A DNA stretch of 64,000 bases from Wohlfahrtiimonas larvae (GCA_040394195.1 JBEBSR010000001.1:25585-89584); one strand, 5' to 3'; positions 1-1,472 are shown, counted from the stretch's first letter. Translations and numbers: made by a program. The notes: a model not told the origin generated them from the letters alone.

Positions 1-271
1 CATAAGCAAAGTAAGCATTAATTCCCATTCCTGGTGCTAATGCGATTGGCAATTTTGCAACAGCACCCATTAAAACTGATGCGATGGCTGTGATTAAAAC
101 AGTTGTCACAAACACAGCTTGTGTATCCATACCTGCTGCGCCCAAAATTTTTGGGTTAACAAACGCGATATAAACCATTGTGATAAAGGTTGTGAAAGCA
201 GCAATTAATTCCTGCTTAATCGTTGTATTGTGGCGCTTTAGTTCGAAATATCGTTCTATAAAGGCTGACAC
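1..271 (-). CDS. NCS2/AzgA (COG2252) purine permease, 5' part (runs off the window)
   Basis: Manual translation from GTG at 271: VSAFIERYFELKRHNTTIKQELIAAFTTFITMVYIAFVNPKILGAAGMD...LPIALAPGMGINAYFAY, the typical AzgA/PurP N-terminus. AGGAG SD lies 6 nt upstream. Not in the ORF track. Confidence 0.9.
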   Translation of the reverse strand, partial: MSAFIERYFELKRHNTTIKQELIAAFTTFITMVYIAFVNPKILGAAGMDTQAVFVTTVLITAIASVLMGAVAKLPIALAPGMGINAYFAY

Positions 272-371
272 TTGTGACTCCTAGATAATTTAGATGAAGT
301 GCATCGATGAAGATGCTGATTTGAAAAGGTAACTTAAACATTTGCTTATATTTCTTTGGGTATGTCTTTAA

Positions 372-512
372 GTCACCTCCTTCACCTATTTAATCTAGCG
401 TCGCCTAGCGAATGTTAGAAAGGAAGGAGATACAGCTATGCTGATCCCGCTCTCGCGGTATCTTGGGGGGTATTAAAATGCGATAAAACATTTAAAAGTC
501 CTCTAGCTGTAT
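372..512 (-). ncRNA. Putative structured cis-regulatory leader RNA (unclassified)
   Basis: 8-bp helix 512-505/437-430 enclosing a CCGC-GAGA-GCGG GNRA hairpin; second helix CUCCUUC(429-423)/GAAGGAG(383-377). No family recognised. Confidence 0.45.
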
Positions 513-534
513 TCAACATGAAAATAAGTTTCGC

Positions 535-562
535 ATTGTAAGGATATTTTTTTGAATGTCAA
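535..562 (-). promoter_or_regulatory. sigma70 promoter driving the permease leader
   Basis: Minus strand TTGACA (562-557), 16-nt spacer, TACAAT (540-535). Confidence 0.7.
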
Positions 563-674
563 ATTTGAATAATCTAGTTAGTTGTTTTCTGAATTATTAA
601 ACTTATGCTGACAAACACTATAAATTCTAGCTATTTAGCGGTTAATGAGCGTATGATAAAACGATAATAAAAAG

Positions 675-1472
675 ATGGAGAATAATATGTCGACACACTA
701 TTTAAACCAAAACCAATCCTACTGGGATCAACAAGCAGCTCAGGATTCTCCATGGTCACAGCCAGTTTCTGATGAATTAGTGCTCAATGCTAAAAATGGT
801 AATTGGGATGTACATTTAATGCCATCAGCGATTTATAAAAATTGGCTTGGCGATATTCAAGGTAAGAAAATCTTGTGCCTAGCTTCTGCTGGTGGACAAC
901 AAGCACCAATTTTAGCAGCAGCTGGTGCAATTGTGACAGTATTGGATATTTCAGAAGGGCAACTGAAAAAAGATCAAGATATTGCTGATAAACATGAGCT
1001 TACACTCACAACTGTACAAGGCAACATGAATAATTTGAGCCAATTTGAAGATGGTAGTTTTGATTTAGTTTTTCACCCGATTTCTAATTTATATGTGCCA
1101 GATGTAAATCCTGTATGGAAAGAATGTTTCAGAGTTTTAAAAACTAACGGGAGATTATTGGCAAGTTTCTATAATCCCATTGTATTCGTGGATAATCATG
1201 ATGCTCTGCTTCGTCAAAAAGGATTGTTAAAGCCAACTTATAAAATTCCTTTCTCTGATATTCGTGATTTACCCAAAGATTTACTGCAACAGAAAATCGA
1301 TAAAGGTGAATCCTTAGTGTTTGGGCACTCTTTAACAGATTTAATTGGCGGACAAACTAAAGCAGGGTTTTTGATTAAAGATTTTATCGAAGAATTTGCA
1401 CCCCATGCGCGGTTCTTAATCGATGATTATCTACCAACCTTCATAGCAACTTATGCCATTAAGTTAGATTAA
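675..1472 (+). CDS. Class I SAM-dependent methyltransferase
   Basis: Motif I-like LCLASAGGQQA, VLDISEGQL, GNMNNL and FDLVF. True start may be ATG 687, behind GGAG. Confidence 0.85.
   Translation: MENNMSTHYLNQNQSYWDQQAAQDSPWSQPVSDELVLNAKNGNWDVHLMPSAIYKNWLGDIQGKKILCLASAGGQQAPILAAAGAIVTVLDISEGQLKKDQDIADKHELTLTTVQGNMNNLSQFEDGSFDLVFHPISNLYVPDVNPVWKECFRVLKTNGRLLASFYNPIVFVDNHDALLRQKGLLKPTYKIPFSDIRDLPKDLLQQKIDKGESLVFGHSLTDLIGGQTKAGFLIKDFIEEFAPHARFLIDDYLPTFIATYAIKLD

Follow-up and report, generated by a model that had tools for sequence, protein, structure and literature searches.

The control of adenine uptake and deamination differs between bacterial groups: enterobacteria use PurR or H-NS, whereas Firmicutes and Vibrio rely on riboswitches. 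The purine riboswitch family (RF00167) is the obvious comparison for the leader considered here. Both are 5′ leaders with a three-way junction closed by a P1 helix, both are linked to purine transport and deaminase genes, and both occur in a gammaproteobacterium. The adenine-sensing add element of Vibrio vulnificus, a translational ON switch, offers two further parallels: an output likely to lie at the ribosome-binding site (RBS), and a sequence beside the 3′ strand of P1 that is able to enter an alternative pairing.

A second comparison is the COG2252 motif, described from 11 sequences of Pseudomonadales (Weinberg et al. 2010, Genome Biol 11:R31, PMC2864571). This element of 63 nt comprises two hairpins, and its 3′ end carries the SD (PMC2864571). 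Lying ahead of COG2252/NCS2 permease genes in Gammaproteobacteria, it is a cis-regulatory candidate, and the present leader likewise precedes an NCS2 permease gene. The authors rated its status as an RNA doubtful ('?') and did not class it as a riboswitch (PMC2864571), and it has no Rfam accession. The original prediction for this locus, which proposed a riboswitch-like leader ahead of a purine permease gene, had assigned this motif to Clostridiales; the published sequences are from Pseudomonadales (PMC2864571).

The window is the whole 64,000-nucleotide stretch of Wohlfahrtiimonas larvae (GCA_040394195.1) that was analysed, and all positions refer to it. Comparison and folding of the sequence indicate that an adenine-utilisation operon here has a genuine leader RNA, conserved and structured, that had not been catalogued before, and make it a credible candidate for a new purine-linked regulatory RNA. 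The features of the locus are collected in Table 1.

The operon and its promoter

The leader locus is a 403-nt gap, read on the minus strand, between a divergent SAM-methyltransferase gene (675-1472, plus strand) and a GTG-start open reading frame (271-2). The expected AzgA-type purine permease is encoded by this frame, as seen from a Pfam Xan_ur_permease match (6.4e-41) and from 57% identity to enterobacterial proteins named adenine permease PurP/AdeP. A second AzgA-type paralogue of the genus, present in 24 of the 25 other genomes of the family that were searched, is only 43% identical to it. Two tandem adenine deaminase paralogues, which overlap by 14 nt, lie 3′ of the permease gene just outside the window (G000:C1:20875-24490 = L063:1876-5491, minus strand; G000 is the source genome). 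Against the TIGR01178 ade profile, with a cut-off of 472.5 bits, the second paralogue scores 609 bits and the first 361 bits. The first, being below the cut-off, may act on another purine. From the annotation of the permease and the ade paralogues, the operon would import adenine and convert it to hypoxanthine.

Some features of the operon vary or have an uncertain history. The nearest relatives of the permease outside the family are found in a Neisseria sp. (78% identity) and in insect-associated Orbaceae (69-73%), closer than the genus's own second paralogue, which hints that the operon may have been acquired horizontally. In W. populi and in strains from three RNA-library runs, an insertion of ~725 nt is located at the position of window 604-644 (L004:1806-2465, minus strand); it is absent from the window's genome. 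This insertion encodes a membrane-protein-like open reading frame of 219 aa in the same direction as the permease, ending ~16 nt before the -35 hexamer. A metagenome-assembled genome (MAG), G007, has CCG at the position of the permease GTG (L006:82-110; window 271-269) and no nearby in-frame start. An error in sequencing or assembly could explain this, as could a dead gene; the contig stops ~80 nt into the permease gene.

The near-consensus promoter TTGACA-16-TACAAT that had been proposed upstream of the leader is borne out. It is the best site within positions 1-1500 and the sole one there to match 11 of 12 consensus positions, and its hexamers are retained in all seven genomes that carry the leader (TTGACA or TTGACT; TACAAT, TAAAAT or TATAAT). 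From this promoter we infer a transcription start at ~528-530 and a leader of ~257 nt. Logan contigs of RNA-library runs span the leader and the gene contiguously, although such contigs carry no start, strand or transcription information. In sp. G9077 (G003) a terminator hairpin abuts the -35 hexamer. An imperfect dyad, ATGCGAAAC-TTA-TTTTCAT (519-537, minus strand), extends across the predicted start. Six genomes conserve this dyad, which may serve as an operator for a protein or simply reflect conservation of the initial transcribed sequence. No intrinsic terminator or attenuator is predicted within the leader, so control is more likely to be translational. The sequence 3′ of helix H5 is U-rich in the source genome only.

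Table 1. Features of the leader locus, in window coordinates
Feature	Position	Strand	Basis or remark
Sigma-70-type promoter: TTGACA 562-557, 16-nt spacer, TACAAT 540-535	535..562	-	11/12 consensus match
Domain I, predicted three-way junction P1/P2/P3	430..512	-	RNAalifold consensus
P1: AUACAGCU with AGCUGUAU	512-505 with 437-430	-	Part of Domain I
P2, AU-rich hairpin	496-489 with 480-473	-	Part of Domain I
P3: GAUACCGC-GAGA-GCGGGAUC	462-455 with 450-443, loop 454-451	-	Part of Domain I
Pyrimidine tract CUCCUUCCUUUCU, anti-SD-like	417..429	-	Pyrimidine-rich in all lineages; sequence drifts
Pyrimidine tract segment CUCCUUCC	429-422	-	Located where originally predicted
Near-invariant core, ~73 nt	357..429	-	96-100% identical in 6 genomes
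P4, predicted mini-hairpin UCGC-UAG-GCGA	401..411	-	RNAalifold
H4, 5′ strand: CUAGAU 398-393, UAGGUGAAG 388-380	380..398	-	Independent MFE folds, all five lineages
Start-less SD-like decoy GAAGGAGGUGA	373..383	-	Invariant in 7 genomes; predicted base-paired
H5, predicted helix: GAGGUGACUUA 379-369 with UAAGUUACCUU 336-326	326..379	-	MFE of all five lineages and RNAalifold
H6, predicted hairpin: GCAUC 316-312 with GAUGC 305-301	301..316	-	Hairpin in every lineage
H4, 3′ strand: CUUCAUCUA 299-291, AUCUAG 286-281	281..299	-	Overlaps first two SD bases
Permease RBS AGGAG 282-278, GTG start 271-269, spacing 6 nt	269..282	-	UCUAGGAG invariant in 7 genomes
NCS2/AzgA-type permease gene, 5′ part	2..271	-	ORF call; gene extends beyond window; full product 433 aa

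Conservation and distribution of the leader

BLAST searches found the leader in all seven Wohlfahrtiimonas genomes that carry the permease, namely the source genome and six of eight others. The two Wohlfahrtiimonas genomes without the leader (94% and 81% completeness) are also without the permease. The leader is therefore linked strictly to one operon of one pathway, and it is single-copy in the source genome. Conservation in the six other genomes runs from the -35 hexamer onward, and the sequence upstream of this hexamer is unalignable between species. Between the window and W. chitiniclastica or G9077, identity is 78% over the permease coding sequence and 48% at its third codon positions, versus 96% over positions 429-357. 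The same interval is 100% identical in W. larvae, and the leader of the source genome as a whole is 99% identical to that of W. populi. The most distant MAG retains 79% identity in the leader core versus 44% at third codon positions. Contigs from four other studies include strains ~10% divergent in the methyltransferase gene that show only a few changes in the leader. On these comparisons, conservation of the leader is far above the neutral level. The best-conserved part is not the 5′ multi-stem domain but the ~73 nt located 3′ of it, where positions 415-367 (49 nt) contain only two differing sites in the most distant genome.

Coding potential was considered as a source of this conservation and rejected. 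The core is noncoding, because stops occur in all sense frames and an antisense frame of 18 codons takes two non-synonymous changes. A 27-codon ATG frame at 519-436 was also dropped, as a 1-nt indel breaks it in W. populi, W. larvae and the G007 MAG, and no ATG is present in W. chitiniclastica or G9077.

The distribution of the leader is narrow. Among 185,579 GTDB species genomes, an exact 24-mer from the core occurs in Wohlfahrtiimonas only, carried by W. populi, W. chitiniclastica, W. larvae, sp. G9077 and two MAGs, and a 22-mer is absent from the JGI metagenomes. Covariance models of both domains, applied to 52 genomes of the order, matched only the seven known loci; two borderline matches to Domain I (E ~0.006) were dismissed, as they lie inside or behind unrelated open reading frames. 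No leader match was found upstream of permease orthologues in the permease-ade operons of a sister genus (74% identity) and of a metagenome bin (67%). Reuse of the element with other expression platforms was not seen, with one locus per genome in one genus. An origin in a mobile element was rejected on the lack of a second copy in the genome and of any plasmid or phage match.

Predicted structure and the pairing switch

The sense strand of the leader folds better than its shuffled versions (z = -3.77, with 0 of 200 shuffles as good), and its score exceeds that of the antisense strand (z = -2.43). RNAalifold and separate MFE folds of the five distinct lineages agree on two domains. Pairing of GCGAA with UUCGC at the 5′ end, seen in the MFE fold of the source genome, was dropped as it is not kept in the G007 and G005 MAGs.

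Much of Domain I had been anticipated. A multi-stem domain closed by helix 512-505/437-430 agrees with the coordinates, with RNAalifold and with the compensatory changes described below; its AU-rich inner hairpin is present as P2 (496-489/480-473), and the pyrimidine tract (429-422) follows directly 3′ of P1. A GNRA hairpin had also been placed correctly in the domain, but its description left out an internal A.G mismatch in P3, and the GNRA loop occurs only in the G000, W. populi and W. larvae lineages, with GACA, GACC or a 5-nt loop elsewhere. The P3 loop consequently has 4 nt (GAGA, GACA or GACC) in four lineages; that of P2 has 6-8 nt. The pyrimidine tract is mostly unpaired in the predicted ensembles.

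In an alignment based on covariance models, 90% of the Domain I cells are paired versus 30-47% when the partners are slid. Three pairs change on both sides, one in each helix, a result matched by 2 of 500 shuffles across the five lineages. The innermost pair of P1, which stands outside this count, is U-A, A-U and G-C in three lineages and U.U in one. The compensatory support for Domain I thus appears real but thin, because there are only five lineages and most of the both-sided changes originate from one divergent MAG. The motif AUACCC(N)AAAG occurs twice on the minus strand, at 472-461 in J2/3 of Domain I and at 363-353 in the loop of H5, and is predicted to be single-stranded at both places. 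Both copies are altered together in the most divergent genome, and the pair may represent paired binding sites or tertiary contacts.

Domain II contains two pairings that the original prediction missed. The first, H4, is a predicted long-range helix that reaches the RBS (398-393 with 286-281 and 388-380 with 299-291); 98.6% of its cells are paired and both strands are invariant. H4 encloses H5 and H6, which gives a second predicted three-way junction. The second is the downstream, anti-SD-like strand 336-326, against which H5 buries the decoy SD. In H5 only one-sided changes occur, namely G.U to G-C and, in G005, a bulge; its loop is conserved in part (GACAUACCCA, 366-357). The sole substitution in P4 converts the loop from UAG to UAA in the most distant genome (G005), leaving the stem invariant. 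H6 is more variable, with loops of 3-6 nt and differing extension pairs, including ACACAUC/GAUGUGU in G005 (a G-C to A-U swap). Overall, H4, H5 and P4 are 89-100% paired with zero covariation, because their strands are invariant. The predicted fold of Domain II is thus supported thermodynamically, and comparatively only in a weak sense. The alignment of orthologous leaders that had been proposed as a check yields conservation in seven genomes, with compensatory changes in Domain I and in H6 and none in the rest of Domain II.

The lack of covariation in Domain II raises the question of whether conservation acts on the DNA, through transcription-factor operators or an internal promoter in the core, with the RNA folds being incidental. 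A direct repeat, CGCTAG-N3-CGCTAG (410-395), palindromic CTAG elements and the conserved dyad at the predicted start are compatible with this. Nonetheless, it is very unlikely. The compensatory changes in P1, P2, P3 and H6 favour selection at the RNA level, and the opposite strand folds less well and would carry A.C mismatches in place of several conserved G.U pairs. The block, at 110-170 nt downstream of the start, would also be oddly placed for an operator. In addition, the core contains no promoter-like site, and no LacI/PurR-type regulator was found in the genome.

The elements that could connect this structure to translation are the decoy and the permease RBS. The decoy was predicted as a perfect SD without a start codon at normal spacing, and its sequence is as described; the caveat is a two-codon start-stop mini-ORF, GUG-ACU-UAA (376-368), that lies inside it. 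This mini-ORF begins 5 nt after AGGUGA, which could itself serve as an SD, and the stretch concerned (387-368, minus strand) is invariant in seven genomes. The decoy (AAGGAGGUGA) is complementary to what we take to be the conserved 3′ end of 16S rRNA; this 3′ end was not found in the source draft assembly. Across the decoy region GAAGGAGG the predicted unpaired probability is mostly ≤0.2, with single positions at 0.8-1.0 in W. larvae (G008) and G9077 (G003). At the permease RBS, H4 is predicted to pair A282 and G281 with a probability of 0.96-1.0 in four of the lineages. G000 differs, as the strongest single partner reaches ~0.5 for A282 and ~0.2 for G281 (unpaired probability 0.49 and 0.67). 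The GAG of the real SD is largely unpaired in the equilibrium ensembles of four lineages, so occlusion of the RBS would be partial at best.

These features could also describe a constitutive folded 5′ UTR without a switch, acting as an mRNA stabiliser or ribosome-loading aid. The decoy would then be a 30S standby site, similar to STAB-SD, or a start-stop mini-ORF, which H4 sets beside the weaker RBS with its GTG start. In favour of this, no normal open reading frame follows the invariant 16S-complementary decoy, and in all lineages the predicted H4 brings the helix of the decoy and the permease RBS together at a single junction. The permease itself has a GTG start and a 5-nt SD, and no alternative fold is predicted to compete. 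However, the decoy would not be free for 30S subunits because it is predicted to be almost fully paired. Domain I, the tract and the long invariant flanks would also be superfluous, and a stabiliser does not explain ~250 nt of conservation. This reading is regarded as distinctly unlikely.

A switch had been proposed in which the pyrimidine tract pairs with either the decoy or the real RBS. The complementarity that this needs is present in all five lineages. Duplexes with the decoy have energies between -10.1 and -14.5 kcal/mol, those with the real SD between -4.8 and -9.5 kcal/mol; in G000 the tract and decoy can pair over 12 bp, a stretch that takes in the last three P1 bases. The equilibrium prediction differs, however: the decoy is nearly always in H5 and the tract is mostly free, and enforcing the pairing of tract and decoy costs 14-19 kcal/mol over the MFE. 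Hence, the scheme appears possible but not favoured, and any switch must be kinetic or driven by an effector. The order of synthesis is compatible with a kinetic route, as the hairpin of tract and decoy can form ~40 nt of transcription before the 3′ strand of H5 is made and ~90 nt before that of H4.

The preferred reading is that the leader is a genus-specific structured cis-regulatory RNA that would control the permease, ade-like and ade genes of the operon. In this model H4 would bring the RBS to the base of the second three-way junction, with H5 and the variable H6 as its arms, and the inter-domain tract could pair with the decoy, the real SD or the GAGGA of the Domain I junction. During transcription the tract would first pair with the decoy, the duplex extending into the last three P1 bases. 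Strands made later would displace this duplex and allow H5 and H4 to form; these would clamp the SD at its first bases, and in some lineages the start codon with it. Binding of an effector would tip the choice of pairing, through a stabilised Domain I/P1 or a stabilised Domain II junction, and the accessibility of the RBS would follow from this. The effector would most plausibly be adenine or a related purine, given that the operon is annotated for adenine uptake and deamination. Rho-dependent attenuation could add to this control, as the leader contains long untranslated stretches that are C-rich and G-poor.

The steps of this model carry different weights. That the leader acts as a riboswitch-like translational control element is possible, at somewhat short of an even chance. 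Its most specific form is a new class of purine-sensing riboswitch confined to Wohlfahrtiimonas, probably responding to adenine or an adenine derivative, in which a two-domain sensor uses a start-less SD and two anti-SD-like strands to relay the ligand state of the 5′ junction to the RBS ~150 nt away. This form is doubtful, and the switching, its effector and the direction of control are inferred. Several points tell against a riboswitch. The fold of Domain II is predicted from near-identical sequences, the pairing of tract and decoy is modelled at 14-19 kcal/mol above the MFE, and the SD is predicted to be only partly paired. The leader is also confined to one genus, and orthologous operons in a sister genus and in a metagenome lack it.

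The 73-nt invariant block is unusual for an aptamer, and fits a macromolecular binding site or several overlapping pairings equally well. The leader might thus be a structured regulatory RNA that is read by a trans-acting macromolecule in place of a small molecule, for example an RNA-binding protein, possibly a product of the operon, or an sRNA that binds the core and opens or closes the RBS. A block nearly free of substitutions more often marks a site under constraint from a conserved partner than an aptamer with covarying stems. Also in line with such a site are the several GGA motifs, the one-genus distribution and the two single-stranded copies of AUACCC(N)AAAG, which are changed together in the most distant genome. 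Conversely, there is no known candidate for the partner, searches of the genome found neither CsrA nor LacI-family proteins, there is no second genomic copy of the core or its complement that could be an sRNA gene, and the divergent upstream neighbour is not conserved across species. A macromolecular sensor is judged unlikely.

Regulation by a physical or global signal, such as an RNA thermometer or a Rho-dependent attenuator responding to translation or growth state with no purine specificity, is highly improbable. The leader is long, untranslated and C-rich and G-poor at 470-461, 429-412 and 362-357, and its SD-touching helices could melt with temperature in hosts that move between insects, wounds and plants. 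However, no fourU- or ROSE-like motif and no Rfam thermometer match was found in it, its SD is only partly paired, and the core is unlike devices of this kind, which tend to be short with little sequence conservation. Some other explanation altogether is given only a slim chance.

Significance and relation to known systems

Standard regulators of purine genes were sought in the source genome, which is 99.8% complete. LacI-family (PurR-type) regulators and CsrA were not found in it by searches that matched control genomes, which weakens the two standard protein explanations; readings of the leader as a PurR operator or a CsrA sponge were rejected on this basis. A genome-wide search with the RF00167 model, for which the gathering score is 37 bits, gave no match at E ≤ 0.01 and likewise matched control genomes. 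The genome thus contains no recognised purine sensor, in the sense of a LacI/PurR-type regulator or a purine riboswitch found by these searches, and the leader may therefore show how purines are sensed in a small gammaproteobacterium associated with insects and wounds. Discovery of a ligand would make the leader a further riboswitch class, set apart by an unusual SD/anti-SD relay, whereas a protein or the ribosome as partner would make it a new leader-binding system. The leader is short and single-copy with clear helix predictions, and is thus cheap to test. The reach of any such result would be limited by the narrow distribution, which spans one genus and five lineages.

The original prediction had also stated that the leader does not match the guanine, xanthine, ZTP or ykkC consensus, and this is upheld by cmscan. 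With Rfam 15, permissive filters and E ≤ 10, nothing was matched in the transcribed leader (272-530, minus strand), including by the models for the purine riboswitch (RF00167), 2'-dG, xanthine/NMT1, ZTP, the ykkC subtypes/PRPP/ppGpp and guanine-II. The only two matches within positions 1-1500 are at chance level (snoU83D and mir-16, E ~9) and both lie outside the leader. Scans of three orthologous loci gave nothing relevant.

The suggested comparison with the COG2252 motif did not reveal a relationship, as neither conserved half occurs in the leader at ≤3 mismatches. The 5′ half (GUGCWUUG-N-CUG-N-UGRRGUC) gave three matches in the window, none of them in 272-562, and the 3′ half (UCRAY-N-CAWUCAYGRCGC, a GC hairpin and GGRGAGC) gave none in 272-562. 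The hexamer ACAUUC is common to both RNAs but stands in a different structural context.

The differences from the RF00167 purine riboswitch are structural. The junction strands of the leader are much longer, and it has an extra invariant domain of ~150 nt that has no counterpart in the riboswitch. In the purine aptamer, the loops of P2 and P3 have ~7 nt each and kiss; kissing of P2 and P3 is unlikely in the leader because its P3 loop is a tetraloop in four lineages.

STAB-SD of Bacillus thuringiensis cryIIIA resembles the leader in having a perfect SD-like sequence without a start codon, which here lies ~90 nt upstream of the real RBS. In contrast to STAB-SD, the element in the leader is predicted to be buried in a helix within a larger conserved structure, and its host is Gram-negative. 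An element of the STAB-SD type would be expected to present an SD accessible to 30S subunits, and in the in silico folds the decoy is mostly paired.

The leader can finally be set beside the orphan riboswitch candidates of narrow distribution (e.g. Weinberg et al. 2017, PMC5737381). It differs from these in being outside Rfam 15 and in that its largest conserved block is without covariation. With them it shares few representatives and no assigned ligand, together with a multi-stem fold and conservation upstream of a single class of gene.
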